A stretch of 64,000 nucleotides of DNA, from contig JBBTZT010000003.1 in assembly GCA_038061225.1 (NCBI GenBank), positions 113,092-177,091 on the forward strand, written 5' to 3'. Origin of the DNA: Patescibacteria group bacterium. Its GTDB lineage: Bacteria > Patescibacteriota > Microgenomatia > UBA8517. Positions 5,885 to 37,909 of this stretch are shown one piece after another (position 1 is the first letter of the stretch; each line of letters opens with the position of its first letter). Under the pieces are notes generated by a model. It ran no database searches. It was given only the letters and a program-made list of their open reading frames with translations, and was not told where the DNA came from. Made by a program: the position numbers and the translations under genes.

Positions 5885-5891
5885 CTGCTTC

Positions 5892-6815
5892 TTAGAAGCT
5901 TGTCAAAGCCTTTAAATAAATCTTCGTAATATTCAATTTTCCAAGAATTGTGTAAATAACTATTCTTAACAAAACTCCAAATTTAAGTATCCCTGTTAAT
6001 ATAGGAAGTTGCCATTTTGGCATATGTAGGTTATAAAATAATTTAAGATTTTGCATTTCCATAATTGTCGCTTTTTCACTTCCATTGGTTGCCATACCAT
6101 AATGAACTGTCTTCCACTTTGGTAAATACCATGTCTCCCATCCTTTTTTGTAAATTCTATATGCAAGCTCTACTTCTTCTACGTAAAGAAAAAACTTTTC
6201 GTCAAAAATTCCTGACTCGTCCATTGCCTTTTTTCTCATTAAGAAAAAAGCACCGGTTACCCAATCTTGCTTATGCATTTCTTTATAATAATCTTCATTC
6301 GTGTGAATAAATGAAGACGAATGCATTGGATGATATGGTTTAATGATGTTATCTAGGTATGGAATATCGTCGATAAATGTCATCCAAGCAATTACTCTTG
6401 ATAAAGTTGGGAAATATCCTCCTGACCCTTGGTAATTTTTAAGATCTGGATTTACTAATGCACAGCTAGATAGTCCTACTTCTGGATGAGAATTCATCCA
6501 ACTAATCATTTCCTTGAATATATTTTTGTCAATTATTTTTGTATCGTCGTTTAAAAGTAAAATATATTTACCTTTTGCAATTTTCATACCCATGTTGTTA
6601 TTCTCACCAAAACCTCCATTTACTTCTCTTCTTATAATTCTAACTTCAGGGAAGTTAGAATTTATTTGTTTTCCTATCATGTCAGCAGAAGCATTATCAA
6701 TAATGATTATTTCATTAGAGATGTCTTTTAACGCAGAATATAAAGTTTTTAGACAATCTTCGAGGTATTTCATTTGAGAAGATACTATGACAATTGATAA
6801 ATCTATTTGATTCAT
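5892..6815 (-). CDS. GT2 family glycosyltransferase
   Basis: LSIVIVS...IIIDNAS...NGGFGENNN...LLNDDT. Confidence 0.7.
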   Translation of the reverse strand: MNQIDLSIVIVSSQMKYLEDCLKTLYSALKDISNEIIIIDNASADMIGKQINSNFPEVRIIRREVNGGFGENNNMGMKIAKGKYILLLNDDTKIIDKNIFKEMISWMNSHPEVGLSSCALVNPDLKNYQGSGGYFPTLSRVIAWMTFIDDIPYLDNIIKPYHPMHSSSFIHTNEDYYKEMHKQDWVTGAFFLMRKKAMDESGIFDEKFFLYVEEVELAYRIYKKGWETWYLPKWKTVHYGMATNGSEKATIMEMQNLKLFYNLHMPKWQLPILTGILKFGVLLRIVIYTILGKLNITKIYLKALTSF

Positions 6816-7645
6816 TTGTTTAATTTAGTAAGTAATTTTTGCCACTTCTGACCTGACCATAATATCGCGTTGATTATAAAATGATTAATTAATCCATGAT
6901 ATATTTTGCTTGAAGGAATTAATCTCTTCCATCTTTCTGTTTCGTTTGCTAGTTTTTTAAATGTTGCTCCGTGGTAATGTGTGATTACTGATTCTGGAAG
7001 GTAATAGACTTTAAGTCCATTTTTCCAACATTGTCTACAGTAATCAATGTCTTCAAAATAGGCCCAATATCTTTCATCTAAAATGCCAACTTTTTCAATT
7101 GCCTTTGGGGTTATTAGAAACACAGCTCCTACAACTGAATCGACTGTGGTTGGTTTTCTGTCTCTGGGTGCAAATTTATCAAATAAACCTTTTTTACCAA
7201 GATAATATTCTAATATTGCATTCTTAATTGTAGGAAAATTAAAACAAGACATTTGAAGTGTTCCATCAATATTTAGAAGTTTGCTACCCACTACTCCCGC
7301 ATCAGGTGTTTTATCAGTAAATTCAACCAATGCATTTAATGAATCCTTGTATACAACTGTATCGTTATTCAGAAGTAAAACATATTTACCCTTAGCAAGT
7401 CTGATACCTTGATTATTTGCTTTGGCATAACCAGTATTGTTGTTATTGAATATTGCATGGAAATTATCATATTTTGCATCATATTTTTTCAACATCTCGA
7501 CAGAACCATCATTACTTCCATTATCAGTTATAAATACTTCAAATGGAAAGTTTAGTTTATATTTGTAAATTGATTTAATACAACCTTCAGTTAAATCAAT
7601 TGTGTTTAGATTAACAATTATTATGGATAATTTTATTTTATTCAT
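6812..7645 (-). CDS. GT2 family glycosyltransferase (start probably MNKIKLSIIIVNLN at 7645; the track ORF extends to 7672)
   Basis: LSIIIVNLN...FITDNGSNDGS...TGYAKANNQG...LLNNDT. Confidence 0.7.
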   Translation of the reverse strand: MNKIKLSIIIVNLNTIDLTEGCIKSIYKYKLNFPFEVFITDNGSNDGSVEMLKKYDAKYDNFHAIFNNNNTGYAKANNQGIRLAKGKYVLLLNNDTVVYKDSLNALVEFTDKTPDAGVVGSKLLNIDGTLQMSCFNFPTIKNAILEYYLGKKGLFDKFAPRDRKPTTVDSVVGAVFLITPKAIEKVGILDERYWAYFEDIDYCRQCWKNGLKVYYLPESVITHYHGATFKKLANETERWKRLIPSSKIYHGLINHFIINAILWSGQKWQKLLTKLNK

Positions 7646-8534
7646 GATTAAATTGTGCAAATATAGCTTCATCAGATAACTTTGATGCTTTTATTTCCTT
7701 TGCTCTTTGTTTTAACATTATTCTAAATCTGCCAAGTGCCATTATTATAATTCTAATGTATCCTGGATGTTTAAGTGATCTTGAGATCAAACCAATTATA
7801 TGCTTTTTAATTAGATTTTTACTATGTATGTTTTTCCAAAGCATCAATAACTGATTTCTTTCTTTGACTCTTGCAACATAAATCTTAGGAAATTTTGAAA
7901 TTGTAGATTCATGTTTATGGACAACTTTTCCCCTGGGTTCCCATAAATTTATATACCCTCTTTTCGCTGCTCTGTAACATAAATCAATATCCTCCCAATA
8001 GAATGGAGATAATAACTTTTCATCCATACCTTCAAGTTCTTCCCAAATACTTCTCCTAAATAAACCGCTTCCTCCGCTGACATAAAAACTTGTGTGTGCA
8101 CCTTTAGTTTCAGCATTCATTCCTAATTGAATATATCCATCAGCAAATGATCCTTTGGCTCCGCCGTAACCTTCTTCATGAGTTGAAACTGCAAATACTT
8201 TTGGATTTTTAAAATGGGGTAGAAGTGGTTCAAGAAAATCCTCATTTGGAATTACATCAGTGTTAATTAATAGTATTATGTCTCCTTTGGCTACTTTTGA
8301 ACCTGTATTTACAGCTGCTGAAAAACCCCTGTTGTTTCCATGTTTAATTAACTTTATTGAATTTTTATAATTTTTTTCTATAAATGAAACACTATTGTCC
8401 CAACTACCATCATCTACAACGATGACCTCAACTATATGATTTTTTGGATTATATACGGCCTTAAAAAGTTTTGGTAAATTCTTTTCCATTATTAATTTAC
8501 CGTTAATGTTTGGAATAACAACAGATACTTGCAT
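7638..8534 (-). CDS. GT2 family glycosyltransferase; inverted paralog of 29774..30682
   Basis: VSVVIPNING...VVDDGS...NRGFSAAVNTG...INTDV. Roughly 55-60% identity by eye to the + strand gene at 29774. Confidence 0.75.
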   Translation of the reverse strand: MQVSVVIPNINGKLIMEKNLPKLFKAVYNPKNHIVEVIVVDDGSWDNSVSFIEKNYKNSIKLIKHGNNRGFSAAVNTGSKVAKGDIILLINTDVIPNEDFLEPLLPHFKNPKVFAVSTHEEGYGGAKGSFADGYIQLGMNAETKGAHTSFYVSGGSGLFRRSIWEELEGMDEKLLSPFYWEDIDLCYRAAKRGYINLWEPRGKVVHKHESTISKFPKIYVARVKERNQLLMLWKNIHSKNLIKKHIIGLISRSLKHPGYIRIIIMALGRFRIMLKQRAKEIKASKLSDEAIFAQFNHE

Positions 8535-8585
8535 GATATTTTATTTATTGTAACATATTATTATATCTGTCTAAACCTAAATTAA

Positions 8586-9467: not shown

Positions 9468-10098
9468 TTATTTTTCTCCACTTTTCAATTTCTCTGTGGT
9501 TGCCAGTTAATAAAATCTTTGGAACTTTTAAGCTGTTGTAATCTTCTGGGCGAGTATATTGAGGGTATTCACTATTCATATTGGAATGAGATTCTTCCGC
9601 TAGGGACTCCGGTTTAATGACATTTGGTATTAGGCGTGTTACAGCATCTGTAATTACCATCGCTGGTATTTCTCCGCCTGTTAAAACATAATCGCCGATC
9701 GAAATGATCTCATCAACAAAATTTTCATGAACTCTATGATCAATTCCTTCATAGTGACCACAAATTAAAACTAATCTCTTCAATTTGGAATAGTCGTATG
9801 CTTTTTTCTGAGTAAATTTCTCTCCGCCCGCATCAGTCATTATTATTTTTAAACCTTTTGTTTTTGGTTTAGCGTCTATCGATTTTAATGCATTATCAAT
9901 AACATCAACGCGGATTATCATTCCTGCTCCACCACCGTATGGTCTATCATCTACAGTTTTTCTTTCATCAATTCCAAATTGACGCATATCAACAATGTTT
10001 AATTTCAAAAAGTCTTTGTCTTGTGCCCGCCACATAATAGATTCATTCATGGGGCCATCAAACATCTTTGGAAACAAAGTAATAATATCAATTATCAT
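9430..10098 (-). CDS. trmD: tRNA (guanine37-N1)-methyltransferase TrmD
   Basis: Full-length match to the TrmD architecture (MIIDIITLFPKMF..., RPYGGGAGM, GHYEGIDHRV). Confidence 0.9.
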   Translation of the reverse strand: MIIDIITLFPKMFDGPMNESIMWRAQDKDFLKLNIVDMRQFGIDERKTVDDRPYGGGAGMIIRVDVIDNALKSIDAKPKTKGLKIIMTDAGGEKFTQKKAYDYSKLKRLVLICGHYEGIDHRVHENFVDEIISIGDYVLTGGEIPAMVITDAVTRLIPNVIKPESLAEESHSNMNSEYPQYTRPEDYNSLKVPKILLTGNHREIEKWRKIINRRKVKLLSRI

Positions 10099-10120
10099 AT
10101 GGATATTGTATCATTTAAGA

Positions 10121-11245
10121 ATGCAAAAGGTTGTAATTGTAATGCCTGTCTGGAATGAGGCTTCAAATCTCCGTAAAATGGTTAAACAGCTTCTTGATGT
10201 TGAGTTTCCAATTATTAATGCAGAAATGAATTTGTTGGTTGTTGATAATCACTCAACTGACGACACTGTGCAAGTTGTAGAAGAATATTCAAAAAAAGAT
10301 AAACGAGTAAAGTTAATTCAACAAAAAAATAATGGTCTTGGCTGGGCTTATGTTTCTGGATTTCAATATGCAATGAAAGAATTTAATGCAGATGCAGTTT
10401 TGGAGATGGATGGAGATTTTCAACATCCAACAAGATTTATAAAACCAATGGTAGATACATTTTTAGCTGGTGCAGATTACTGTATTGGAAGTAGATATGT
10501 TAAGGGTGGGTCTATTCCTAAAGAATGGCAATTTTCAAGACGAGCAGTTTCATATTTAGGAAATTTATTTATAAGACTTGTTTTACTTAGACCTTCATTA
10601 CATGACTTGACAACTGGCTTTAGACTCTCAAGAGTAAAAGGGGTACTAGATCAAATTGATCTCCCTAATTTAATGGAACTTAATAGATTTGCATATAAAG
10701 TAGATCTATTATATCAATCAATTAAATTATCAAAAAAGACAGTTGAAGTCCCTTTAAAATTTGCGCCTCGAACAATGGAAAAATCTAAATTTAATCCAAA
10801 AGAAATGATTGCAACTTTTAAAGTAGCAATCATTTTAGGTATTAAGGATAAGATGAAAATTATCAAGTTTGGAATAGTTGGTTTTACTGGGTTTGTAGTT
10901 AATTATATTACTCTTCGAATCTTTCGAAATCTAGGATTTACTGAAACTTTATCTTGGGCTTTTTCTACAGAACTTGCAATAATTAATAATTATATATTTA
11001 ATAACATATGGACATTTAAAGAAGATGAAATAAAAGGAATAAAACAAACTATTCTTAAATTTTTCCAATTTAATCTAACATCAGCAGGAGCTCTTTTAAT
11101 ACAGTCAATAGCAGGTCCATTCGGGGTTAAACTCGTTGGTGTTCAATATGATGCATTAGTTTTAGCTTTTGTCGTATTGTTCTTGGTTATGCCTTACAAC
11201 TTCGCCATGTATAATCTCGTTATATGGAGAAAAAAGAAGGTTTGA
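10121..11245 (+). CDS. Polyprenyl-phosphate sugar synthase (Dpm1/ArnC/GtrB-like GT2) fused to a C-terminal GtrA-family 4-TM domain
   Basis: N-terminal VIVMPVWNEASNL...VVDNHSTDDT...MDGDFQHP GT2 core. C-terminal FGIVGFTGFVVNYITLRIF...ELAIINNYIFNNIWTF is the GtrA family. The ATG at 10121 is chosen to avoid trmD overlap. Confidence 0.7.
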   Translation: MQKVVIVMPVWNEASNLRKMVKQLLDVEFPIINAEMNLLVVDNHSTDDTVQVVEEYSKKDKRVKLIQQKNNGLGWAYVSGFQYAMKEFNADAVLEMDGDFQHPTRFIKPMVDTFLAGADYCIGSRYVKGGSIPKEWQFSRRAVSYLGNLFIRLVLLRPSLHDLTTGFRLSRVKGVLDQIDLPNLMELNRFAYKVDLLYQSIKLSKKTVEVPLKFAPRTMEKSKFNPKEMIATFKVAIILGIKDKMKIIKFGIVGFTGFVVNYITLRIFRNLGFTETLSWAFSTELAIINNYIFNNIWTFKEDEIKGIKQTILKFFQFNLTSAGALLIQSIAGPFGVKLVGVQYDALVLAFVVLFLVMPYNFAMYNLVIWRKKKV

Positions 11246-21841: not shown

Positions 21842-21854
21842 TACAATTTAAATT

Positions 21855-23330
21855 GTGGAAGAAGAAATTGGAATAGAAACAATAGGAATAGAGACCATAA
21901 AGCAAAGATCTGTTCGTGGAGTTGTTATTTTAACTGGTAGAACTTTTTTACTTCAAATTATTGGTCTTGTTGCACAATTTTTTCTATTTGCCTATCTTGG
22001 TGGTTATGAATTTGGAGTTTTTGCAATTATTTCTGCAATCATTAATTTTCTAGTTTATTTTTCTGATATTGGACTAGCTGCAGCTTTAATTCAGAAAAAA
22101 GAAACTCCAACTGATACAGATTTAAAAACAACTTTCTTTGTTCAACAAATATTAATTTTCACAATAATTGGAATTGTTTTTTTACTAACCCCTTTCTTTG
22201 TCCAAAAATATTCACTAACCTATGATGGTCAAATACTTTTATACGCATTATCTTTATCCCTTGTCTTTTCATCTCTTAAAAGTATTCCTTCAGTACTTTT
22301 GGAAAGAAAATTGGAGTTTATTAAATTAGTTTTTCCCCAAATTTTAGAACAAATTGTTTATAACGTAGTTTTGGTATTTTTTGCCATGAAGGGTTTTGGT
22401 TTAAAAAGTTTTACTATTGCAGTAATTTTAAGGGGAATTATAGGACTTGTTGCAATTTATGCACTTCAACCATGGAAACCTGGAATTGCCTTTTCCTTAA
22501 ATACTCTAAAAGGATTATTTAAATTTGGTATTCCATATCAAATTAATACATTTTTAGCAACGCTAAAAGATGATGGAATGACGATTGTGTTAGGAGGAAT
22601 AATCGGTCCAGTTGGAGTTGGAATATTATCATTTGCTCAGAAGTTAGCGAGGCTTCCGTTAACATTTTTTATGGATACGGTAACACGTGTGACTTTCCCT
22701 GCATTTTCAAGAATGCAAGATCACAAGAATGATTTAGAAAGAAGTGTTACAAGATCAATATTTTTCATTTGTCTTTTTGTTTTTCCAAGTTTAATGGGAA
22801 TAATTATACTTTCTCCATTGTTAGTTCGTGTTGTTCCAAGATATGAACAATGGATACCAGCACTTATCCCAATTATATTTATCTCAATAAATTTTGCTTT
22901 TGCCAGTGCTACAACACAACTTACTAATCTTTTAAATGCGATTGGCAAAATTAAAATAACATTTTATTTAATGATAATGTGGACTGTTTTATCTTGGACT
23001 TTTATTCCATTTTTAGCTCTAAAATTTGGAGTATTGGGAGCATCAATTGGTTATGCTTTAGTTGGGTCATCATCTCTAATTGCGATATATATAGCTAAGA
23101 AGTATGTAAACTTTGGAGTTATCGATTCAATGATCAAGCCATTGATTGGATCAGTTGTTATGGGGGTAGTCTTGATTTTTGTACGTAAATTTTTGGATAT
23201 TAGTGTGAATTCAATGCTTATTCTAAGTTTAGTTGGTGTATTAGTTTATGGTTCGTCAATGATTTCTATGATGGGTGTTTCTTTAATAGAAGATGCTAAA
23301 AAAAGTTACAAAACAATTTTCTCTCGTTAG
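21855..23330 (+). CDS. Wzx/MOP-superfamily polysaccharide flippase (GTG start inferred)
   Basis: 14 predicted TMs. The N-terminal RGVVILTGRTFLLQIIG pattern is typical of polysaccharide biosynthesis/flippase proteins. Confidence 0.6.
   Translation: MEEEIGIETIGIETIKQRSVRGVVILTGRTFLLQIIGLVAQFFLFAYLGGYEFGVFAIISAIINFLVYFSDIGLAAALIQKKETPTDTDLKTTFFVQQILIFTIIGIVFLLTPFFVQKYSLTYDGQILLYALSLSLVFSSLKSIPSVLLERKLEFIKLVFPQILEQIVYNVVLVFFAMKGFGLKSFTIAVILRGIIGLVAIYALQPWKPGIAFSLNTLKGLFKFGIPYQINTFLATLKDDGMTIVLGGIIGPVGVGILSFAQKLARLPLTFFMDTVTRVTFPAFSRMQDHKNDLERSVTRSIFFICLFVFPSLMGIIILSPLLVRVVPRYEQWIPALIPIIFISINFAFASATTQLTNLLNAIGKIKITFYLMIMWTVLSWTFIPFLALKFGVLGASIGYALVGSSSLIAIYIAKKYVNFGVIDSMIKPLIGSVVMGVVLIFVRKFLDISVNSMLILSLVGVLVYGSSMISMMGVSLIEDAKKSYKTIFSR
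21869..21898. repeat. 15-bp tandem repeat GGAATAGARACMATA x2 at the 5' end of the flippase ORF
   Basis: 12/15 identity between units; encodes IGIETIGIETI. Confidence 0.8.
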
Positions 23331-26598: not shown

Positions 26599-27599
26599 AT
26601 ACTTTAGGTGGGGGAGAACGTTACAGTTTAACCTTTGCTAAAGTATTAGCGGAAATTGGGTTTGACGTTGATATTGAATGGAAAGATAAATCAATAAAAG
26701 AAAAACTCTCGAAAAGATTTGGATTAAAATTGCCAAATAATATTAATGTTGTTGATAATATCAATCGCGGGGAAGGTTATGATATTTGTTTTTGGGTAAC
26801 AGATGGTAGCATTCCCACTTTGAGATCGAGAAGAAATTATCTTCACTTCCAAGTTCCATTTCATGATGTCAATGGAACATCGTTGCTAAATAAAATGAAG
26901 TTATTTAGAATAGAAAAAATAATTTGTAATTCTTACTTTACCAAAACAATAGTTGACAAAGAGTATGGAGTAAATTCTATTGTTCTTTATCCACCCGTTG
27001 CTACGGATTTGTATAAAGCAAAAAGAAAAATTGAGCAGATTTGTTATGTCAGTCGTTTTTCTGAATTAACACAAAATAAAGGGCATGACATTTTAATTAA
27101 ACAATTTAAATTATTAGTTAAAGACAAAAAGTTTAAAGAATGGAAATTAGTTTTAGCAGGCGGGACTGAAATAGGTTCAACTGATTATCTTAAAAGACTA
27201 AAGAAAATGAGCAGTGGATATAATATAGAATTTGTAGAAAGTCCTACGGTAGATATTTTAAAAAATATATTTGGCAAATCAAAAATATTTTGGTCTGGTT
27301 CAGGGTTTAGTGAGAATGAAGTTAAAAATCCTGAAAGAGTGGAACATTTTGGAATTACACTAGTTGAGTCGATGTCCGCAGGATGTGTTCCTGTCGTATA
27401 TAAGGCAGGTGGATATAAAGAAATTATTGATAATAGTAAAAATGGATTTTTATGGAATGATAAAAAAGATCTTTTAGAATTAACTAAAAAAACAGTAAAA
27501 GAAAAAGGATTATTAAAAACAATTTCTAAAAATGCGATTGACTCGTCAAAAAAATATAGCTATGAAACATTTAAAAATGAAATCAGAAAAATTATATAG
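26565..27599 (+). CDS. GT4 family glycosyltransferase
   Basis: E-x7-E motif FGITLVESMSAGCVPVV. Confidence 0.65.
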   Translation: MGKAAIYNPYLDTLGGGERYSLTFAKVLAEIGFDVDIEWKDKSIKEKLSKRFGLKLPNNINVVDNINRGEGYDICFWVTDGSIPTLRSRRNYLHFQVPFHDVNGTSLLNKMKLFRIEKIICNSYFTKTIVDKEYGVNSIVLYPPVATDLYKAKRKIEQICYVSRFSELTQNKGHDILIKQFKLLVKDKKFKEWKLVLAGGTEIGSTDYLKRLKKMSSGYNIEFVESPTVDILKNIFGKSKIFWSGSGFSENEVKNPERVEHFGITLVESMSAGCVPVVYKAGGYKEIIDNSKNGFLWNDKKDLLELTKKTVKEKGLLKTISKNAIDSSKKYSYETFKNEIRKII

Positions 27600-29124
27600 T
27601 GTCTTATCAATTGCAATATTTGTAATTGCATTTTTTTTAAGGGTAATGTTTTTGCAAAATAACGCATTAACTTTTGGATATGACCAAGCACGAGATGCAT
27701 TAATTGCTAAGCAAATCATTTCAGGAGATATTAAAATACAAGGACCACCATCTTCAGCTCCGGGGCTTTATCATGGCGTTTTTTATTATTACTTATTAGC
27801 ACCAGCTTATCTAATAGGTCACGGAAGCCCTATTGTTGTGGCTTATTATTTAGCTTTTTTAAATTCACTTACTGTTTTTATTGTTTTTTTTACAGCGAAG
27901 CTGGCCACGAAGAATTCGTGGATTGCACTTTTGTCAGCATCTTTATACGCTATTTCATTTGAATCAACTCAATACGCAACATGGCTTAGCAATCCAACAA
28001 TCGCGGTCTGGACAGTCCCTTTAATGTATTTAGGCTTATGGATTTGGATTTTATCAATAAAACAAAAGAAATTAATAGTCGGTCCAATTTTAGCAGCAAT
28101 TGGATTGGGTCTTTCCATACAAGCGGAAATATTTCTTGCCTATCATATTGTTCCTCTTCTGATATGGTTGGCGATTTACAACAAAAATATTACTAAAAAA
28201 AGTTTATATTATTTTTTTGGATTTTTAATCTTTGTAACCTTTAGTCTTATTCTCTGCGAGTTTAAATTTGGTTTTAATAGTTTAACTGCTATAAAATCAC
28301 TAGCTACAACAAGCGGGGGGAATTTGGCATATGCAAAATCTGTTGGTGATTATTTAATTCTTTATTTAAATCAAGTGGGTCGTATTTTTGCCTTTAATAC
28401 TTACCCTGGGAATATTGGATATGGTGGTGGAGTAATAATTATACTTGGGATATATTCACTTTTAAATTACACACATAGCTTCGCTGCCAAAAAAAATCCA
28501 TACCCTGCATTTTTAGCAGTTTGGCTATTTTCTCATCTATCTGTTGTTACTGTTGGCGGAATGTCAACCCCCTTTTTAATGGTTGGAATTGGACCAGCAA
28601 TATCTTTGATGTTGGGTTTTTATATATATAAATTATTTAATAAAAAGAGAATTTTTGCTATTTTAATTTTTTTAATAATATTTTATGGAAATTTAAATTT
28701 TATTCTTTCTCAGAATAAATTAGGGTCAACTCTTTTTTCTATACAAAAAGACATGCTTCTTTCAAAACAAATTGATGCGATTGACTATACATATCAATTA
28801 GCCGACGGAAAACCATTTAGCATTAGTAGTCTGACATCTCCTCTTTGGATAAATATTGTTTGGACATATTTATATAAATGGTATGGGGTGAATACTTACG
28901 GATATGCCCCTTATTGGCATGGTAAGGATCAAATAGGACAGCTTGATAGTTTAGAGAGAATTGACAATCCCTTTGATACATCATTTCTAATACTTGAGCC
29001 TATGGCAGGCATACCTGTTAGATATTTGTCAGAAACAATTGCTGAGGAAGATGTCGATACCAAAATGGTTGAAGAAAAATCCTTCGGAGAAATAATAGTT
29101 CAAAAAAGAATAAAAATTTTTTAA
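27577..29124 (+). CDS. GT-C fold membrane glycosyltransferase, family A paralog 4
   Basis: GYDQARDALIAKQI, GxxYYYL; paralog of 13294/15757/17253. Confidence 0.55.
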   Translation: MKSEKLYSVLSIAIFVIAFFLRVMFLQNNALTFGYDQARDALIAKQIISGDIKIQGPPSSAPGLYHGVFYYYLLAPAYLIGHGSPIVVAYYLAFLNSLTVFIVFFTAKLATKNSWIALLSASLYAISFESTQYATWLSNPTIAVWTVPLMYLGLWIWILSIKQKKLIVGPILAAIGLGLSIQAEIFLAYHIVPLLIWLAIYNKNITKKSLYYFFGFLIFVTFSLILCEFKFGFNSLTAIKSLATTSGGNLAYAKSVGDYLILYLNQVGRIFAFNTYPGNIGYGGGVIIILGIYSLLNYTHSFAAKKNPYPAFLAVWLFSHLSVVTVGGMSTPFLMVGIGPAISLMLGFYIYKLFNKKRIFAILIFLIIFYGNLNFILSQNKLGSTLFSIQKDMLLSKQIDAIDYTYQLADGKPFSISSLTSPLWINIVWTYLYKWYGVNTYGYAPYWHGKDQIGQLDSLERIDNPFDTSFLILEPMAGIPVRYLSETIAEEDVDTKMVEEKSFGEIIVQKRIKIF

Positions 29125-29126
29125 AT

Positions 29127-29777
29127 ATGAATACAAAAAAAATAGGTGAGGATTTACATGCACACGTTCCTGCAAACTGGTATTTTGAAAGTTTAAAAAA
29201 AGATCCATTTCAAAAATATTGGCATACTACAAGATTTAGAGAAGTTAAAAAGGTAATAACTACAGCTGACTCGGTATTAGACGTTGGTTGTGCGGATGGA
29301 GTTTTCTCTAATGTAATTTTTAAAAGTACAAATGCTAAAAAGTTTATAGGGCTTGATATTGTTAAAACATCAATTGAATGGGCAAAAAAACATTGGTCTA
29401 AAAATAGGGAAATGAAATTTATAGTAGCAGATGCTCACAGTTTGCCTTTCAAAGATAAAATATTTGATGCAGTCTTTTGTTTGGAAGCATTAGAGCATGT
29501 TGCAGATCCTATTAGAGTGTTAAGTGAATTTAAAAGAGTTATGAAAAAAGGAGGCTATGGTGTCTTTTTAGTTCCATCGGATAATAATTTATTTAAAGTG
29601 GTTTGGTGGTTGTGGTTACATTTTTATCCAAGAGGTTGGGTTTGGAGGGAAACTCATATTCAAACATATAGAGACAGTTATCTGCCAAAAGCATGTAAAA
29701 AAGCAGGTTTTGAAGTGGAACTAGACAGAAAATTTAATTTAGGAATGTTACACTTAGTTAAAGTAACAAAACCATGA
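29127..29777 (+). CDS. Class I SAM-dependent methyltransferase
   Basis: Motif I VLDVGCADGVFS; FDAVFCLEALEHV. Confidence 0.75.
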   Translation: MNTKKIGEDLHAHVPANWYFESLKKDPFQKYWHTTRFREVKKVITTADSVLDVGCADGVFSNVIFKSTNAKKFIGLDIVKTSIEWAKKHWSKNREMKFIVADAHSLPFKDKIFDAVFCLEALEHVADPIRVLSEFKRVMKKGGYGVFLVPSDNNLFKVVWWLWLHFYPRGWVWRETHIQTYRDSYLPKACKKAGFEVELDRKFNLGMLHLVKVTKP

Positions 29778-30682
29778 GATCCAGCTACGCTATGAAAGTA
29801 TCAATAGTTATCCCAAATTATAATGGTAGAGAGTTTTTGGAAACAAATCTACCTAGTATTATTTCTGCACAGTATAATCCAAAGAATAAAATATTTGAAA
29901 TAGTGATAGTGGATGATCGTTCTACAGATGAAAGCGTTAGTTATCTTAATAATAAATACAAAAATATAATCCGTTTAATTAAACACACTAAAAACAGAGG
30001 TTTTTCTGCAACTGTTAATACAGGAGTTAGGTCGACAACAGGAGATTTCATTTGTCTATTAAATACTGACGTTTTACCTTCCACTAATTTTTTAGAATTA
30101 GTATTAGATAGTTTTAGAGATGAAAAAGTATTTGCAGTTTCTCTCCACGAAAAAAATTATGGTCCTGCAAGAGGTTATTTTGAAGATGGATTTATACAAA
30201 TAAGTTCAAAAAAAGAATCTAAAGAAATTGAAAATAGTTTTTATGTAAGTGGAGGAAGTGGTGTATTTAGAAAAAGTATTTGGCAAGAATTAGGAGGATT
30301 AGATGAAAAGTTATTATCTCCATTTTATTGGGAAGATATTGATATATGTTTTAGAGCAGCTAAAAGAGGTTACTTAAATTTATGGAATCCTTTTGGAAGG
30401 GTTGTTCATAATCATGAATCAACTATTTCAAAATTATCCAAAAAATATATAGAAAGAGTTCGTGAGAGAAACCAATTATTAATGCTTTGGAAAAATCTAC
30501 ATAGTAAAGCAATGTTTGAGAAACATTTAAATGGTTTGTTTAAGCGGATATTAAAAAATCCAAGATATCTTCGAATTATCTTAATGTCGTTATTTAAATT
30601 GGGCTTAGTTATTAAAGCCAGACGTAAGGAAATAAAAGAATGTATTGTTAGTGATGAAGCAGTTTTTCAAAAATATCAATGA
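29774..30682 (+). CDS. GT2 family glycosyltransferase; paralog of 7638..8534 (-)
   Basis: VSIVIPNYNGREFL...VDDRSTDES...NRGFSATVNTG...LNTDV. Confidence 0.75.
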   Translation: MRSSYAMKVSIVIPNYNGREFLETNLPSIISAQYNPKNKIFEIVIVDDRSTDESVSYLNNKYKNIIRLIKHTKNRGFSATVNTGVRSTTGDFICLLNTDVLPSTNFLELVLDSFRDEKVFAVSLHEKNYGPARGYFEDGFIQISSKKESKEIENSFYVSGGSGVFRKSIWQELGGLDEKLLSPFYWEDIDICFRAAKRGYLNLWNPFGRVVHNHESTISKLSKKYIERVRERNQLLMLWKNLHSKAMFEKHLNGLFKRILKNPRYLRIILMSLFKLGLVIKARRKEIKECIVSDEAVFQKYQ

Positions 30683-32319
30683 TTAAACTTTTTTGGTTTG
30701 GCTTGATAGTTATCTTTACAATTCCTGCTTTTTGGAATCTACTTCGACCTGGGTTTTTTTCGATGCAGGATGATCTGCAAGCTTTTCGTATTCAACAAAT
30801 GGATAAATGTTTAACTGACTTTCAGATTCCCTGTCGCTGGGTTCCTGATGCTGGTTATGCTTATGGTTATCCTCAATTTAATTACTATCCACCTCTTCCT
30901 TATTATGTTGGAGCAGTGCTTCATAGAGTAGGAATTCAATATATTGATGTAGTTAAAATATTATTTATCATAGGTTATATCTTGTCTGCTATTGCTATGT
31001 ATATCTTAGTTAGTGAATTAACTAATAAATGGTCGGGATTTGTAGCTTCAGTTCTCTATACTTATATTCCATATAAAGCGGTTGAAGTTTACGTCAGGGG
31101 TGCGTTAAGTGAATTTTGGGCGCAAGTTTTCTTTCCTTTAATATTATGGTCTTTATATAAACTAATTAAGACAAATAAAAAGATTTATATCCCAACGACA
31201 GCCTTATTTATAGGTTTACTGGCAACAACCCATACCCTAATGACTATGATATTTGCTCCAATTGCTATTTTGTGGGCATTTTACTGGTTATATTTACAAA
31301 AGGGAAAAAATATAAACAAAATAGTTTGGGCTGGAATACTTGGAGTAGGGCTTTCTGCTTTTTTCTTACTCCCTGTAATTTTTGAGAAGAAATTTGCCCA
31401 TGTTGACTCTGTTCTTTCAGGTTATTTTGATTATAGAGCTCATTTTGTAAGTTTGTATAAACTTTTTATATCTCGCGAGTGGGGATATGGATCATCAGGT
31501 TTTCCCAATGAAAAATTAAACTTATCACTTGGAATTGTGCAATGGCTGGCTGGCTTATTTGCTGGATTACTTGCTTTAATTAGTTACAAAAAAAACAAAA
31601 TTTTATCTCTTACTACTTTCTGCATACTACTTGCTACATTGTTTTCTGTTTTTATGATTCATATGAAATCAAGTTTCATTTGGGCTAAGTTACCATTTAT
31701 GTGGTATTTACAATTTCCCTGGAGATTTTTGGCTGTTTCTATATTTCTTTTGTGTTTGTTGTCTGGTTTTTTTATATTCTTTTCAAAAAAACTCCAATAT
31801 ATTTTAGGAATAATTTTAATTATTGCTTCTATTATCCTAAATATTAAATTTTTTGTTCCTAAAGATTGGCTTTATATAACTGATGCCGATAAATTTTCAG
31901 GTGTTAGTTGGCAAAAACAAATGACAATATCAATTTTTGATTATTTACCAATTTATGCAACTCTTCCTCCAATAAATGAAGCTCCTGATATACCAGAAGT
32001 GTTAGATGGAAAAGCTTTATTTAGTGATTATAAAAAGGGAAGTAATTTTCAAACTGGGAAAGTAGATGTTTTAGAAGATGCAACAATTAGAATTCCTCTA
32101 TATGATTTTCCAGGAATGCAGGTTAAAGTAGATAGTAAAAAAGTAGAACATTATAATAATGATTGCAGGGGGCAAGAGTTTTGCTACGGGCTAATTTCCT
32201 TCAAATTGCCCGAAGGTGAATATAATATAGAAGTCAAATTAACAGATACTCCAATTAGGAAAATAGGTAATTTAGTATCACTTGTTAGTATAATAATATT
32301 ATTATGGTTAAGTTTTTGA
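30679..32319 (+). CDS. Polytopic membrane glycosyltransferase-like protein, family B paralog 1 (DD first-loop motif)
   Basis: FSMQDDLQAF, PCRWVPD, YxxRGALSE shared with 32304 and 33875. About 13 TMs plus a C-terminal beta-rich domain. Confidence 0.5.
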   Translation: MIKLFWFGLIVIFTIPAFWNLLRPGFFSMQDDLQAFRIQQMDKCLTDFQIPCRWVPDAGYAYGYPQFNYYPPLPYYVGAVLHRVGIQYIDVVKILFIIGYILSAIAMYILVSELTNKWSGFVASVLYTYIPYKAVEVYVRGALSEFWAQVFFPLILWSLYKLIKTNKKIYIPTTALFIGLLATTHTLMTMIFAPIAILWAFYWLYLQKGKNINKIVWAGILGVGLSAFFLLPVIFEKKFAHVDSVLSGYFDYRAHFVSLYKLFISREWGYGSSGFPNEKLNLSLGIVQWLAGLFAGLLALISYKKNKILSLTTFCILLATLFSVFMIHMKSSFIWAKLPFMWYLQFPWRFLAVSIFLLCLLSGFFIFFSKKLQYILGIILIIASIILNIKFFVPKDWLYITDADKFSGVSWQKQMTISIFDYLPIYATLPPINEAPDIPEVLDGKALFSDYKKGSNFQTGKVDVLEDATIRIPLYDFPGMQVKVDSKKVEHYNNDCRGQEFCYGLISFKLPEGEYNIEVKLTDTPIRKIGNLVSLVSIIILLWLSF

Positions 32320-33896
32320 ATAAGCATTGGATTGTTGTCATTATTTTTATTCTTGGACTTTCTGTCTCACAGCCTTTGATGAAAACTGGTTATTTCTCAC
32401 ATCAGGACGACTTGCAAGTAATGAGAATTTTTGAAATGAGAAAATGTTTTTCTGATTTTCAAATTCCCTGCAGGTGGGTTCCAGATATGGGTTGGGGAAA
32501 TGGTTTTCCTCTTTTTAACTTTTACGGTCCGTTTACATATTATTTAGGAGCAGTAGTTAGTTATGTTTTAGGATATCTAAATTCTGCAAAATTATTATTT
32601 TTTACAACACTAATTGTAGGAAGTTTTGGAGTATATTTATTAGTCAGAGAATTGTGGGGAAAGTATGCTGGATTAACTGCAGCTAGTTTGTATCTATTTG
32701 CTCCCTATAAAGCATTGGATATATATGTACGCGGCGCACTTTCGGAAAGTATGGCGCTTGCAATAATTCCTTTTGTTTTTTACTTTCTTCAAAAGAAAAA
32801 TTATAAACTTTTTACAGTTAGCTTATTTTTCTTTTTAATAACACACAACATAATGACTGTTATTTTTGTTCCAGTTGTTGTTCTTTGGGGGATTTATGTT
32901 TTATTTCTAAATAAGTTTAATAACTTAAAATTTGTTTTGCTATCGTTTATAATAGCCTTTGGCTTAGCTTCCTTTTTTATCTTACCGGCTTTTTTTGAAA
33001 AAAATTTAGTGCAGACTCAAAGTTTAACTAGATTTGAACTTGATTTTAGAGCTAATTTTATTAGTATAAAGCAATTATTTTTTGATAGAGTTTGGGGATA
33101 TGGTACATCAATTCCAGGACCAGAGGGTGGGATGAATTTTTCTATTGGTTGGCCACATTGGTGGCTAGTTTTACTGTCAACTTTTGCATTACTTTTTGTG
33201 AAAGACAAAAAGAGCATTCTACTTGCTCTATTCTACATACTACTATTCTTGTTCTCCATATTCATGACTCACAACAAGTCCTCGTTCATTTGGGAAAATA
33301 TAAGTATTTTAACTTTTTTCCAATTTCCTTGGAGGTTTTTATCATTATCTATATTAACTTCTTCTATTTTGGGAGGTTTTGTAATATCTTTATTTAGGGA
33401 AAAATTACAAATATATGCAAGTTTATTTATTATATTAATTACTGTTTTTTTAAATTGGAGTTATTTTAAGCCAAGAGAATTTTACGAGGTTACAGAGAAA
33501 GAGAAGATGACTGGAGAACTTTGGGAATATCAAAGAAAAGGTGCAATATTAGATTATTTACCAAAAACAGCACTTGAGCCGAGAGAGGGTGCAAATACAA
33601 CTTTGTCAAATTTCCAAAGTTATTCAAATAAATTTTCATTCGAAATTAATCTTGATAAAGAAACTCAAATTGAAATCCCTATTTTTTATTTTCCAAATTG
33701 GGAAGTAACAGTTGACGGTGAAAAATATTTAGTATCACACGATAATATTTTAGGTAGAATTTCAGTTTTAGTTCCCGAAGGTTATCACAAAATTGTAGGT
33801 AATTTCAAAAATACTGTAATTAGAACATTTGCTAATTATTTAACTTTAGTTAGTTTTTTTAGCTTAATTTATATATGGAGAAAACACAAAAACTAA
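32304..33896 (+). CDS. Family B paralog 2
   Basis: FSHQDDLQVM, PCRWVPD, VRGALSES. Confidence 0.5.
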   Translation: MVKFLNKHWIVVIIFILGLSVSQPLMKTGYFSHQDDLQVMRIFEMRKCFSDFQIPCRWVPDMGWGNGFPLFNFYGPFTYYLGAVVSYVLGYLNSAKLLFFTTLIVGSFGVYLLVRELWGKYAGLTAASLYLFAPYKALDIYVRGALSESMALAIIPFVFYFLQKKNYKLFTVSLFFFLITHNIMTVIFVPVVVLWGIYVLFLNKFNNLKFVLLSFIIAFGLASFFILPAFFEKNLVQTQSLTRFELDFRANFISIKQLFFDRVWGYGTSIPGPEGGMNFSIGWPHWWLVLLSTFALLFVKDKKSILLALFYILLFLFSIFMTHNKSSFIWENISILTFFQFPWRFLSLSILTSSILGGFVISLFREKLQIYASLFIILITVFLNWSYFKPREFYEVTEKEKMTGELWEYQRKGAILDYLPKTALEPREGANTTLSNFQSYSNKFSFEINLDKETQIEIPIFYFPNWEVTVDGEKYLVSHDNILGRISVLVPEGYHKIVGNFKNTVIRTFANYLTLVSFFSLIYIWRKHKN

Positions 33897-35494
33897 TATC
33901 TAAATATCTTGTTTTAATAATATTATCACTTTCTATTCCTGCTGTTAGATATTTTTTTGTGTATGGTTATTTTGGTGTTTCAGATGATTTGCACATTGGT
34001 TGGCTTTTTGAAATGGATAGAGTAATTAAAATGTTGCAATTTCCTCCAAGATACGTTCCAGATTTGTCTTTTGGTTTTGGTTATCCTCTTTTTAATTTTG
34101 TTTATCCATTACCTTTTTATATAGCTGAGTTTTTTCATTTAGTAGGTTTCTCGCTAGTTAATAGTGTCAAACTTGTTTTTGGTCTTTCGATTCCATTTTC
34201 AATGTTTTTTGCTTACAAGCTATTAAAACACTATTTATCAGAAGGGCTGTCACTTGCTGGAGCTACTCTATATGTATACGCTCCATATAGGGCTTTGGAG
34301 ATCTTTGTAAGAGGAACGATAGGGGAGATAGTTGCCTTTGTATTTTTCCCAATAATTCTTTATAGCGTAATCAAAAAGAAGCCATATTTTTTAGCTTTAT
34401 CTTTTGCTGGCCTTATTCTGTCGCACAATATTATGGCTTATATGTTCATGCCATTTTTATTGGTATTTATTATCGCTAATAAATCATTTATGGTTTCTTT
34501 AAAAGGAATATTATTAGGACTATTGTGTTCAATCTACTTTTGGTTTCCTGCGCTTTTAGAAAGCAAATTAATGAAATATGATACTGTTTTTAACTTTTAT
34601 GATCACTACCCTACTTTAAAACAATTTATTACTCCATATTGGGGTTATGGAGCTTCAGTTGCTGGTAATTACGATACCATGTCTTTTTATATGGGCATAA
34701 CAGGGCTGGTGGTGGTAGGTGTGGGTTTAATTTTATTTTTCTTAAATTTAAAAAAGTTTTCAAAAGAAGAAAAAATATTCATTGGTTGGGGAGCTCTGGT
34801 ATTTTTTATATCTATTTTTATGATGAACTTTCGTTCAGCATTTTTATGGAGGAGCATTCCCCTTTTGCCGTATTTCCAATTTCCATGGAGATTTTTGGCA
34901 ATGACAACATTTGTTAGTCCTATTTTTTTACTTTGTTTTACAAAGTTTAAAAATCAAAAGATCTTGAGCCTAATTTCTTTTCTTGTTATATTTTTTGCGA
35001 TAGTTTTAAATTTCAATTACTTTAAAACCAGTGAGTATCTTGGTCGTGGTGATGATTATTATTTAAATAGATATATACCTTCTTTATCAGTTAGTGAAGC
35101 TTACAAACAAACTTTAGAAGAATATTTAAGATTACCAAAGGATACCAAGATAAGACCTAATAAACTTTATCCTAGAGCATACACAGATGATCTGGAAGTA
35201 ACTCTTCAAATTGAAGAAGAAAATGCACTCAATGCAAAAATAACAACAGATAGTAAAACTGATTTTAATCTAAATTATAATAAATATTATTATCCAGGAT
35301 TTATTGCAAAAATTGATGGCAATAGGGTACAAATTAGTGCCGGAGAACCATTTGGGCAAATTTCATTTACAGTACCTAGTGGTAAACATGAGGTAATTGT
35401 TTTATATAAAGAATCATCTTTTAGATTAATCTTTGATATAATTTCACTAGGGGCAATAGTTACTTCGATTTATTTAATAATGAAAAATAGATGA
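33875..35494 (+). CDS. Family B paralog 3
   Basis: GVSDDLHIGW, PPRYVPD, VRGTIGE. Confidence 0.5.
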   Translation: MEKTQKLISKYLVLIILSLSIPAVRYFFVYGYFGVSDDLHIGWLFEMDRVIKMLQFPPRYVPDLSFGFGYPLFNFVYPLPFYIAEFFHLVGFSLVNSVKLVFGLSIPFSMFFAYKLLKHYLSEGLSLAGATLYVYAPYRALEIFVRGTIGEIVAFVFFPIILYSVIKKKPYFLALSFAGLILSHNIMAYMFMPFLLVFIIANKSFMVSLKGILLGLLCSIYFWFPALLESKLMKYDTVFNFYDHYPTLKQFITPYWGYGASVAGNYDTMSFYMGITGLVVVGVGLILFFLNLKKFSKEEKIFIGWGALVFFISIFMMNFRSAFLWRSIPLLPYFQFPWRFLAMTTFVSPIFLLCFTKFKNQKILSLISFLVIFFAIVLNFNYFKTSEYLGRGDDYYLNRYIPSLSVSEAYKQTLEEYLRLPKDTKIRPNKLYPRAYTDDLEVTLQIEEENALNAKITTDSKTDFNLNYNKYYYPGFIAKIDGNRVQISAGEPFGQISFTVPSGKHEVIVLYKESSFRLIFDIISLGAIVTSIYLIMKNR

Positions 35495-36714
35495 AAAGAT
35501 TTATTACAACAATTTTAGCAATTGGCTTAATTCTTAGGCTTATACTTTCATCTATTACTTATCATTCAGATATTGTCCCATTTGATTTTGCAGCTAAAAT
35601 AATAAAGAATGGAAATATTACCAACTTTTACGATTATTTATGGAACCTTCCAGAAGACCACCCTTATTTAAAAGTTTATCCCAGAAATTTATTTAATTAT
35701 CCACCTCTACCATATTTCTTTTTGGGTGGGGCATCATTACTTACTACTTGGATAGTAGATCAAACAGTACATGATAATTTTGTACTAAATTTTTCTTCGA
35801 CACTTGGTAATCCACAACTCAATTTATTACTTCTATTATTAAAACTTCCTTATTTTTTCTTTGACATAGCAATTGCTTATTTATTGATGGGAATATTTAA
35901 AGAGGAAAAACAAAAAAAGTGGGCATTTGCTTTGTGGATGTTTAATCCAGTTAATCTTTATGCAACATATATGGTAGGCCAGTTTGATATTATTCCAACT
36001 TTTTTGACAGTTGCTGTGCTTTACCTTGCTGTCAAGAAAAATAATTTTACACTAGCTGCAGTGCTATTGGGGTTAGGGGCAGGATTTAAGATATTTCCTC
36101 TACTTTTCATGGTTCCACTTGCATTTGTTAAACCAAATTTATTGGATAGAATAAAATTATTACTAACATCAGTAATAACATATGTTTTATTTGCATATCC
36201 ATTTCTTTGGTCAAAAGGATTTAGAATGACTGCGGCACTTGCCAACCAAACGACCAAAAGCTTTTACGCTAATGTTCCAGTTTCAGGTGGTGAATCAATA
36301 ATTTTATTTTTAGCAGCTGTCATCTTTTTTTACATTTTGTTTTTTTACAAAAAAACTTTAGTAGAAGATCTATGGAAAAGATTTTTTGTAATGATTTTAG
36401 TATTTTTCATCTTCACCCACTTTCATCCTCAATGGTTTTTGTGGACCATGCCGTTTTTTGTAATTGATCTTGTTAAAACAAAATTAAAGCATTGGCCACT
36501 TTTTGTAATGTTGTTAATAACTTTTATTGGAATGATTACCTTTTTTGATTCAGGACTTTCAATTGGCTTGTTCTCGGCCATAAATCCCACTCTTTATAAT
36601 CTTCCCCCAGTTTGGCAGTTATTAGGATTAAATCTTGACATCAATGTTTCAAGAAGTATCTTACAGACAATATTTACAGGAATATCTGCCTATTATATAT
36701 ATGAATATGCGTAA
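35491..36714 (+). CDS. Polytopic membrane protein, family D paralog 1 (DUF2029/GT87-like mannosyltransferase candidate)
   Basis: GLGAGFKIFPLLF motif; about 10 TMs. Paralog of 36701..37909. Confidence 0.4.
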   Translation: MKRFITTILAIGLILRLILSSITYHSDIVPFDFAAKIIKNGNITNFYDYLWNLPEDHPYLKVYPRNLFNYPPLPYFFLGGASLLTTWIVDQTVHDNFVLNFSSTLGNPQLNLLLLLLKLPYFFFDIAIAYLLMGIFKEEKQKKWAFALWMFNPVNLYATYMVGQFDIIPTFLTVAVLYLAVKKNNFTLAAVLLGLGAGFKIFPLLFMVPLAFVKPNLLDRIKLLLTSVITYVLFAYPFLWSKGFRMTAALANQTTKSFYANVPVSGGESIILFLAAVIFFYILFFYKKTLVEDLWKRFFVMILVFFIFTHFHPQWFLWTMPFFVIDLVKTKLKHWPLFVMLLITFIGMITFFDSGLSIGLFSAINPTLYNLPPVWQLLGLNLDINVSRSILQTIFTGISAYYIYEYA

Positions 36715-37909
36715 ACTTTTATTAATCGCTGTTGCCTTAAGATTATTGGTATCTGGTTTGTTGTTTCATCCCGATATAAAGACTATTGCTTTTCAAACAT
36801 CTTTTCTTAAAAAGGGTATTGTTAATATTTATCCATATCTAATAAATAATAAAGTAAGCCTTCCTTTAAAAGAAGAATTTGTTTATTTCCCGCTTAGCTA
36901 TTTGACTTTAGGCAGTTATCAAACATTTGTCTCTAGCTTTTTAGGTAATGATTTTAGCAATTGGCTTAGTGATGCTGGAGCAAATTCTGTGGTAAATAAT
37001 CCGAATATTATTAAATACTTAATATTTTTAAAGTTTCCACTTCTAGTTTGTGATATTTCAATTGCCTTTTTATTACTCAACTTCTTTAAGAACAGAAAAA
37101 AAGGAGAGCAAGCTTTTACTCTTTGGTTATTTAATCCATTTACAATTATTCTAATTTATGCCTTTTCAAATATTGATATCTATGCAGTTTTATTAACAGT
37201 TATTGCTTTTTTATATATTAAAAGAGAGAAATTAATAACTGCCTCAGTTTTTCTAGGTCTTGCAATTTCTTTTAAACTTTATCCATTACTTTTTGTTCCA
37301 TTTATATATTTAGAAGCAAAAAACATTAAAGATAAAATATTAACTGTATTAATTCCAATTTCAATATTTATCGCATCAGTAATTCCTTTTTGGTCAGAGG
37401 CTTTTGTAAAATCCGCGCTTGTTTCGGGATTATCTGTCAGAATATTTAGTCCAAATTTTGAAATAGGGTTTGGTGAATCTATGATTATTGGCATATTTTT
37501 ACTTTCAATATTATTTTGTTTTGCTTGGATGTATGAGAAGAACATTAAATTACTTAATTATTTTATTGTTTTGCTACTTGTACTATTTTCATTTTCTCAC
37601 TTTCATATTTCTTGGCTTTTGTGGATTGCACCATTTTTAGTAATAGTAGTAATTAAAAAACCAATTACACTTTGGCCTGTGCTTTTGTGGTCTATGCTTG
37701 CTATTTCAATCCCACTATTTTATACAGACAGGTCAATGACAATATCACTTTTTAGAATATATACTACTTGGTATGATTTGCTTCCAACACCGTTTATTGT
37801 TATACAGAAATTATATGACCCATATAATTTTCAAAGTATAATACATTCTGTTATGGCTGGAATGTCTGTTTTATTATCGTTTAATTTACTTAAAGATGAA
37901 CAAATTTAA
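36701..37909 (+). CDS. Family D paralog 2 (the track ORF starts at 36635; the ATG at 36701 or 36707 avoids the long overlap)
   Basis: GLAISFKLYPLLF motif; same topology as 35491. Confidence 0.4.
   Translation: MNMRKLLLIAVALRLLVSGLLFHPDIKTIAFQTSFLKKGIVNIYPYLINNKVSLPLKEEFVYFPLSYLTLGSYQTFVSSFLGNDFSNWLSDAGANSVVNNPNIIKYLIFLKFPLLVCDISIAFLLLNFFKNRKKGEQAFTLWLFNPFTIILIYAFSNIDIYAVLLTVIAFLYIKREKLITASVFLGLAISFKLYPLLFVPFIYLEAKNIKDKILTVLIPISIFIASVIPFWSEAFVKSALVSGLSVRIFSPNFEIGFGESMIIGIFLLSILFCFAWMYEKNIKLLNYFIVLLLVLFSFSHFHISWLLWIAPFLVIVVIKKPITLWPVLLWSMLAISIPLFYTDRSMTISLFRIYTTWYDLLPTPFIVIQKLYDPYNFQSIIHSVMAGMSVLLSFNLLKDEQI

Follow-up and report, generated by a model that had tools for sequence, protein, structure and literature searches.

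A conserved three-gene array of GT-C glycosyltransferases of the PF10131 family in a probable envelope-glycan locus of Microgenomates bacteria

Glycosyltransferases (GTs) of the GT-C type take sugars from lipid-phosphate-linked donors and work on the outer side of the membrane (PMC8035078). In the solved enzymes, the proposed catalytic aspartate comes after the first transmembrane (TM) helix (PMC11127046), and the acidic motifs of the group have been described in general as DXD, DXE, EXD, DDX or DEX (PMC5836110). Gram-positive systems rely on a cytoplasmic GT-A enzyme that makes the C55-P-sugar and on a flippase that carries it across the membrane; on the outside, teichoic acids or rhamnose polysaccharides are then decorated by a GT-C enzyme (PMC8035078). 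Among families whose function has genetic support, YfhO (PF09586), the GT-C enzyme of CsbB/YfhO/GtcA teichoic-acid glycosylation in Bacillus, Staphylococcus and Listeria, is the nearest to the proteins described here. These proteins, B1, B2 and B3, are encoded by consecutive genes in a 64,000-nucleotide (nt) stretch, hereafter the window, from a Patescibacteria group bacterium (assembly GCA_038061225.1, contig JBBTZT010000003.1, positions 113,092 to 177,091), and they belong with PF10131 (PTPS_related), a GT-C clan family of unknown function (PMC7801869). A first-pass annotation of the window had described them as a GT-C-like triplet reminiscent of the Emb/Aft arabinofuranosyltransferases. Here we report that B1, B2 and B3 are true GT-C enzymes, an assignment that is strongly supported, and place them in the uncharacterized PF10131 family, and we consider it likely that they are anciently duplicated, probably all active enzymes of the class A type that use polyprenyl-phosphate-sugar donors outside the membrane as part of an envelope-glycan locus.

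All three genes lie on the plus strand and begin with ATG: B1 at 30679..32319 (546 amino acids, aa), B2 at 32304..33896 (530 aa) and B3 at 33875..35494 (539 aa), which bears out the earlier description of three consecutive paralogs of about 530-545 aa. BLASTP joined them over their full lengths, with 39% identity between B1 and B2 (E = 1.6e-116) and 29% between B3 and either B1 (2.4e-60) or B2 (8.7e-63). No further protein of the family was found in the window, where the next best score with the family hidden Markov model was E = 0.055. The B1/B2 and B2/B3 overlaps are 16 and 22 nt, and each flank of the array has a 4-nt overlap as well, with a GT2 gene upstream and a GT87-like gene downstream, pointing to a single co-translated unit. 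The window has a G+C content of ~30% and nearly all of its genes lie on the plus strand. A consensus scan of positions 20000-39000 detected no excess of promoter-like sites (86 vs 101 in shuffled sequence), and terminator-like sites were not above the shuffled expectation (12 vs 8.3), so that internal transcription units cannot be claimed. Scanning the window for tRNA genes and with Rfam gave no match.

The exact proteins were found in metagenome-assembled genomes (MAGs) labelled 'Patescibacteria group bacterium', with close relatives in Woesebacteria, Dojkabacteria and Microgenomates. B2 has syntenic orthologs, B3 has 1853 homologs, and a scan of species-representative genomes returned 539 relatives, including members from Woese-, Davies-, Shapiro- and Collierbacteria. 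Among 80 species-representative loci, the order B1-B2-B3 was found in 32 and this order plus a fourth paralog in 13. The other loci carried shorter arrays or a single gene, and most of these came from lineages further away or lay at the end of a contig. A closed genome of 841,695 bp also keeps the B1-B2-B3 order, with ortholog identities of 69, 61 and 68%, respectively. This conservation of order across Microgenomates indicates that the triplication is old and has been maintained. Many loci, including L005, L007, L010 and L013, come from MAGs titled 'uncultured Gammaproteobacteria bacterium' though the locus is of Microgenomates type, and these titles appear to be placeholders or mistaken taxonomic names.

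Natural fusions were found within the same family. Proteins of ~800 aa with a GT2 domain of ~250 aa N-terminal to the GT-C part make up 34 of the 120 B1-clade homologs, and two-module proteins are represented by P0241 (1093 aa), in which a B2-like module is followed by a B3-like module and which was present in NCBI, Logan and ENA assemblies (three independent sources), and by P0243 (1116 aa). The fusion junctions are compatible with the cytoplasmic C- and N-termini predicted below. These fusions indicate that the genes are functionally linked, and B1, B2 and B3 probably work side by side and possibly do so as a complex. Giant predicted proteins with multiple family-B or GT-C modules were also observed, namely P0249 (3329 aa, from a 258-kb JGI contig), P0285 and P0381; their modules, two strong and several weak, lie in a single reading frame, and the proteins could be either real multi-enzyme polyproteins or gene-calling read-through.

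B1 matched PF10131 at 36.0 bits, above the gathering threshold of 26.4, while B2 scored 24.6 bits, slightly below it, and B3 had no Pfam match. Pfam matches were also counted in 85 diverse relatives, mutually no more than ~50% identical, giving 72 to PF10131, 32 to PMT_2, 16 to YfhO (best 1e-12), two to GT-C_AftD, one to STT3 and none to either the Emb model or PMT (PF02366). B2 and B3 are homologous to B1 along their whole length, most of the relatives match PF10131, and the triplet as a whole is taken to belong to this family. By sequence, its nearest relatives appear to be the PMT_2 and YfhO families, and B1-B3 would themselves fall outside the YfhO, PMT_2, Emb/Aft and STT3 Pfam families: B1 scored 16.7 bits against PF13231 (PMT_2), below the gathering threshold of 26.1, and B1-B3 gave no match at E<=0.1 to PF09586 or to the Arabinose_trans, AftA and GT-C_AftD models. 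No NCBIfam model matched B1-B3, and PDB sequence searches with profiles of 3 and 99 sequences returned chance matches only, so that sequence reveals no solved structure for the family.

The fold was modelled for B1 with AlphaFold from 99 sequences, giving a confident structure (predicted local distance difference test score, pLDDT, 89.6; predicted template modelling score, pTM, 0.91). A Foldseek search with this model recovered GT-C enzymes exclusively at E<0.1. Fold similarity was highest to Pmt4 (20.7), STT3B (20.4), Pmt2 (18.5), PglB (18.4) and AftD (17.8), lower to AglB (17.4), ArnT (16.7), ALG12 (16.4), ALG9 (15.9) and AftA (15.8), and lowest to DPY19 (13.6), AftB (11.5) and EmbA (8.1). 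Together with the PF10131 match of B1, the model and its similarity to solved structures confirm the GT-C-like character proposed in the first-pass annotation, and the similarity to GT-C structures, whose absence had been named there as the observation that would speak against it, is clearly present. The model contains 12 membrane-length helices, the last at residues 525-545, with a 65-residue loop after helix 1 and a long, partly disordered TM7-TM8 loop at residues 236-285 that carries W-G-Y-G at 268-271. A domain predicted to be extracytoplasmic (residues 392-524; 31855..32250, plus strand) is inserted between TM11 and TM12 and includes beta-sandwich strands at 440-521, for which Foldseek gave weak matches to accessory beta-domains of glycoside hydrolases. 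Hydropathy and loop charges agree with 12 helices, and the alternation of short loops bearing K or R with long loops of mixed charge fits a topology in which both termini are cytoplasmic. In this modelled topology, loop 1, the beta-domain and every invariant residue would lie on the outer side.

The high rank of the PMT and oligosaccharyltransferase folds, and a conserved W-G-Y-G in a long flexible outer loop, could be taken to suggest that B1-B3 are protein glycosyltransferases of this kind, acting on pilins, S-layer or other surface proteins in place of a polysaccharide. The ranking, however, reflects the shared GT-C core only; sequence identities to eukaryotic PMT, STT3, PglB and AglB are 9-13%, and the Pfam counts point the same way, with STT3 matched by one of the 85 relatives and PF02366 by none. 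B1-B3 also have neither MIR domains nor a C-terminal domain bearing WWDYG, the motif of oligosaccharyltransferases, and the WGYG of B1 stands outside its C-terminal domain. PMT, STT3, PglB and AglB glycosylate proteins, whereas for family B there is no evidence of this, and the surrounding locus is of a polysaccharide type, with rmlC and rmlD, numerous genes for GT2 and GT4 enzymes, and flippases of the Wzx type. We therefore regard protein glycosylation as an unlikely role for B1-B3.

Conserved motifs were located in all three proteins. Asp-Asp-Leu follows the first TM helix by 9-10 residues, and this acidic motif opens the first extracytoplasmic loop on the plus strand at 30769..30774 in B1 (D31-D32), 32406-32411 in B2 (D35-D36) and 33983-33988 in B3 (D37-D38). 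The motif had been given as H/MQDDL, which holds for B1 (SMQDDL) and B2 (SHQDDL) and fails for B3 (GVSDDL); the PCRWVPD with its conserved Cys-Arg-Trp is likewise found in B1 and B2, while B3 has PPRYVPD and its orthologous clade has PPR[FY][VI]PD throughout. What B1, B2 and B3 have in common in loop 1 is therefore only P-x-R-x-V-P-D (B1 P51-D57, 30829..30849; B2 32466-32486; B3 34043-34063; plus strand). In B1, an arginine and a glutamate of Y138-V-R140-G...E145 (31090..31113, plus strand) sit at the extracytoplasmic ends of TM3 and TM4, and Q-F-P-W-R-F marks the outer start of TM10 (B1 Q345-F350, 31711..31728; B2 33321-33338; B3 34877-34894; plus strand). Conservation was then counted over 131 diverse relatives, each representing a cluster at 50% identity. 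Of these, 129 (98%) have Asp at position 31, and comparable values were obtained for R53 (99%), R140 and E145 (98% each), H185 (98-100%), W348 (100%) and R349 (99%), followed by E236 (92%) and D57 (80%). These nine positions provide a concrete list of candidate catalytic residues.

Each of the nine residues is kept in B1, B2 and B3, and because the near-invariant residues of the family are retained in each, all three enzymes are probably active. This bears on a different explanation, in which at least one paralog has no transferase activity and acts instead as a non-catalytic partner, scaffold, flippase or polymerase/ligase in a GT-C complex. Such a role might be seen in the physical association that the natural fusions suggest, and in B3, which lacks both a Pfam match and the loop-1 cysteine pair; yet a degenerate subunit would not be expected to keep every near-invariant residue, as all three do, and we consider this explanation very improbable.

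The cysteine of PCRW is paired with a second cysteine 8 residues upstream, and the pair occurs in all B1- and B2-clade genes and in no B3-clade gene. Both C44 and C52 are present in 65 of the 131 representatives and neither is present in 66, so that one alone is never found. A catalytic role for the PCRW cysteine was rejected on these grounds: perfect co-variation, together with the loss of both residues from B3, is the mark of a loop disulfide, which Cys44 and Cys52 probably form, and no catalytic signature. The beta-domain of B1 also has an insertion at residues 499-505 (32173-32193) with two extra cysteines (NNDCRGQEFCYG), missing from B2 and B3, which is probably a second extracytoplasmic disulfide.

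Aligned with hhalign to nine PMT_2 paralogs of the same window, family B matched from TM1 to TM7 (98.4% probability, E = 4.5e-15), with D31-D32 of B1 falling exactly on the PMT_2 D-E and R140 on their conserved arginine. The PMT_2 paralogs have an invariant Asp followed by E or Q, and in family B position 32 is D in 75 of the 131 representatives (57%), N in 12 (9%), E in 12 (9%) and F in five, and orthologous clades in species-representative genomes include DN, DS and DE variants. As the second position varies in both families, DD vs DE does not separate chemistries and is uninformative here, and the earlier proposal that DD implies another donor or linkage chemistry was not borne out. Nor was the proposal that the triplet is of the Emb/Aft type rather than the ArnT/PMT type, given the lack of Emb matches and the position of Pmt4, STT3B and PglB above AftD in fold similarity; the structural comparison suggested with it gave the GT-C fold and did not give closeness to Emb/Aft, with EmbA last. 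A UbiA-type synthase and DprE1 are required parts of the pentofuranose donor pathway (PMC11127046). Pfam scans of the 57 window open reading frames of at least 120 aa revealed neither a UbiA-type polyprenyl-phosphoribose synthase nor a DprE1-like protein, and the polyprenyl-phospho-pentofuranose pathway as a whole (UbiA-type synthase, phosphatase, DprE1/DprE2) was not encountered among them. The reading of B1-B3 as Emb/Aft-like arabinofuranosyl or other pentofuranosyl transferases with a polyprenyl-phospho-pentofuranose donor, although two of the 85 relatives match GT-C_AftD weakly (2.6e-5) and although multiple GT-C enzymes making one extramembrane polymer would be a system-level likeness to arabinan assembly, is accordingly very improbable, since the Emb model is matched by no relative, the second Asp is variable in a motif that aligns with the PMT_2 D-E, and the donor genes just named were not found among those 57 open reading frames.

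Our preferred interpretation is that B1-B3 transfer sugars from lipid-linked donors to an envelope glycan, and the features above can be arranged into a possible mechanism. Each protein would cross the membrane with 12 TM helices, its two termini being cytoplasmic, and would have a 65-residue outer loop 1 with the catalytic Asp (D31 in B1), the residues R53, R140, E145, H185, E236, W348 and R349 at the outer membrane face, and a beta-sandwich of ~130 residues outside, between the last two helices. A cytoplasmic GT2 enzyme, for which the GT2-GtrA protein at 9995-11245 is a candidate, would put a sugar on polyprenyl phosphate, and the lipid-linked sugar would then be flipped across the membrane. 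By analogy with other GT-C enzymes, D31 may act as the general base that activates the acceptor hydroxyl while arginine residues hold the lipid phosphate, so that the sugar would be moved to the growing envelope glycan at the outer face. The flexible loop at 236-285, with its W-G-Y-G, and the beta-sandwich may aid acceptor binding, and the three paralogs would differ in acceptor or linkage specificity.

Several points weigh against this interpretation. We infer the donor, the acceptor and the formation of a complex alike, and our literature search found no functional study of PF10131/PTPS_related proteins or of Patescibacteria GT-C enzymes. The candidate donor synthase is encoded 20 kb from the array, and the donor it would make could go to the enzyme of any of the window's ~17 GT-C genes. 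In addition, the GT2 domain fused to B1 resembles a glycan-elongating enzyme, so that the fusion links pathways without identifying the donor: a model of the window ortholog of this domain, the GT2 at 6812-7672, was most similar to chondroitin polymerase (22.1), GlfT2 (21.7) and RmlT (19.6), ahead of DPMS (16.5), GtrB (16.2) and ArnC (15.2). This greater nearness to glycan-acting GT2 enzymes weakens the idea that the fused domain is the source of the lipid-linked donor.

A more ambitious proposal, which we hold only tentatively and think rather doubtful as it stands, is that B1-B3, joined in some lineages by the fourth copy, act as a GT-C 'assembly line' in an obligate hetero-oligomer, in the manner of EmbA-EmbB or Pmt1-Pmt2, which together with the ~14 other GT-C enzymes would build a rhamnose-containing, lineage-specific wall polysaccharide almost wholly outside the membrane. 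If this were true, bacteria with a genome below 1 Mb would have an equivalent of arabinogalactan or endoplasmic-reticulum-lumen glycan assembly, and PF10131, with its thousands of members, would gain a first function. At 50% identity, 18,910 clusters match the PF10131 profile, and for 5,940 the match reaches E<=1e-30. The outcome overall is a refinement of annotation within the known GT-C type and not a new kind of system, to which the array and the fusions add some interest. Very small genomes, such as the related closed one of 841,695 bp, still keep an array of three to four B genes among ~17 GT-C genes, and such an investment suggests that the surface glycan matters to these bacteria, which are believed to live in attachment to other cells.

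The array is part of what appears to be a conserved Microgenomates envelope-glycan locus of at least 45 kb, with rmlC, rmlD, rhamnosyltransferase-like GT2 genes, two Wzx-type flippases in the window as a whole and ~14 GT-C genes besides B1-B3. The window also encodes GT4 enzymes, methyltransferases and sugar-nucleotide-modifying enzymes. NCBIfam searches of the genes neighbouring B1-B3 gave generic matches below threshold. The adjacent GT2 gene (29774..30682, plus strand; 302 aa; Pfam PF00535, 9.4e-25), whose end shares 4 nt with the beginning of B1, is the conserved upstream neighbour and holds the same position in two other loci (L002 and L003). It was rejected as the counterpart of the GT2 fused to B1, being 25% identical to the fused domain vs 51% for a WbbL-like GT2 of 286 aa at 6812..7672 (minus strand), which was compared with the N-terminus of P0093 and is the ortholog of the B1-fused domain. 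The best candidate for a lipid-phosphate-sugar synthase, which could supply the donor, is the 416-aa protein at 9995..11245 (plus strand), in which a GT2 domain (PF00535) is joined to a GtrA/DPMS TM domain (PF04138); its best NCBIfam similarities were to PgfS, AglJ, ArnC and PpgS, all below cut-off. A Wzx/MOP-type flippase at 21855..23330 (plus strand; Polysacc_synt_3, 2.4e-51; NCBIfam MOP flippase, 6.9e-36) lies in the same co-directional run as the array.

The density of GT-C-like genes in the window is high, with ~17 such membrane genes in 64 kb (13294-46287 and 61152-63302). Ten are of the PMT_2 type and start at 13294, 15757, 17253, 20318, 27532, 40218, 41668, 43280, 44686 and 61152, and a GT87 pair lies at 35491-36714 and 36635-37909; B1-B3 and two genes without a Pfam match make up the remainder. 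The host genome is probably smaller than 1 Mb, in which ~17 GT-C genes are a very large share. Near one end of the window, five GT2 genes of WbbL/rhamnosyltransferase-like type, distributed over the two strands (4919-5884, 5892-6815, 6812-7672, 7638-8534 and 8586-9467), come after rmlC (3455-4042) and rmlD (4039-4938), and this group (3455-9467) hints at a rhamnose-containing polymer. Two pairs of related proteins without Pfam matches were also observed. Membrane proteins of 573 and 611 aa at 23293-25014 (plus strand) and 38446-40281 (minus strand) show 30% identity across 576 aa (E = 1.3e-59) and have in common the motif G-x-x-G-H-D-G-(I/T)-W-H-I-A-L close to the N-terminus. Both proteins are conserved in the syntenic L002 and L003, and they may be another uncharacterized family of the same pathway. 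Proteins of 383 and 379 aa at 11418-12569 (minus strand) and 49791-50930 (plus strand) are 30% identical over 210 aa (E = 9e-12) and could be polymerase- or ligase-type membrane proteins. A Bro-N domain protein is encoded at 19491-20321, in the middle of the glycan locus; this domain is usually tied to phages and mobile elements. A 120-aa '23S rRNA intervening sequence'/bAvd-like four-helix-bundle protein (E = 8.6e-38) is encoded at 55620-55982, between glycosyltransferase genes.

Compared with described systems, family B shares with PMT_2 enzymes of the ArnT, GtlB and GacL type a homologous TM1-TM7 region, an equivalent catalytic Asp and an equivalent Arg after TM3, but differs from them in its own invariants (P-x-R-x-V-P-D, H185 and Q-F-P-W-R-F) and in its C-terminal beta-sandwich and last TM helix. 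The GT-C fold, a loop-1 Asp and a beta-rich extracytoplasmic domain are features that it has in common with AftD, AftA, AftB and EmbA/B/C. Several mycobacterial Aft/Emb paralogs cooperate on one polymer, EmbA and EmbB as a heterodimer, and the B2-B3 fusions hint at a similar association; however, the B proteins are ~540 aa long vs 600-1400 aa, have no Emb Pfam match, and are encoded in a window whose open reading frames near the array include no arabinose-donor pathway genes. The likeness to YfhO is in architecture and setting, with ~12-13 TM helices and an extracytoplasmic domain between the last two (PMC5836110), an adjacent GT2 gene and a monoderm host. Unlike YfhO, which is encoded by one gene, family B forms a conserved array of three to four copies, its adjacent GT2 has no CsbB-type membrane anchor, and the outer domain is ~133 aa in B1 vs 389 aa in Bacillus subtilis YfhO (PMC5836110). 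By analogy, the arrangement of the B locus may work like the Gram-positive multi-component transmembrane glycosylation systems.

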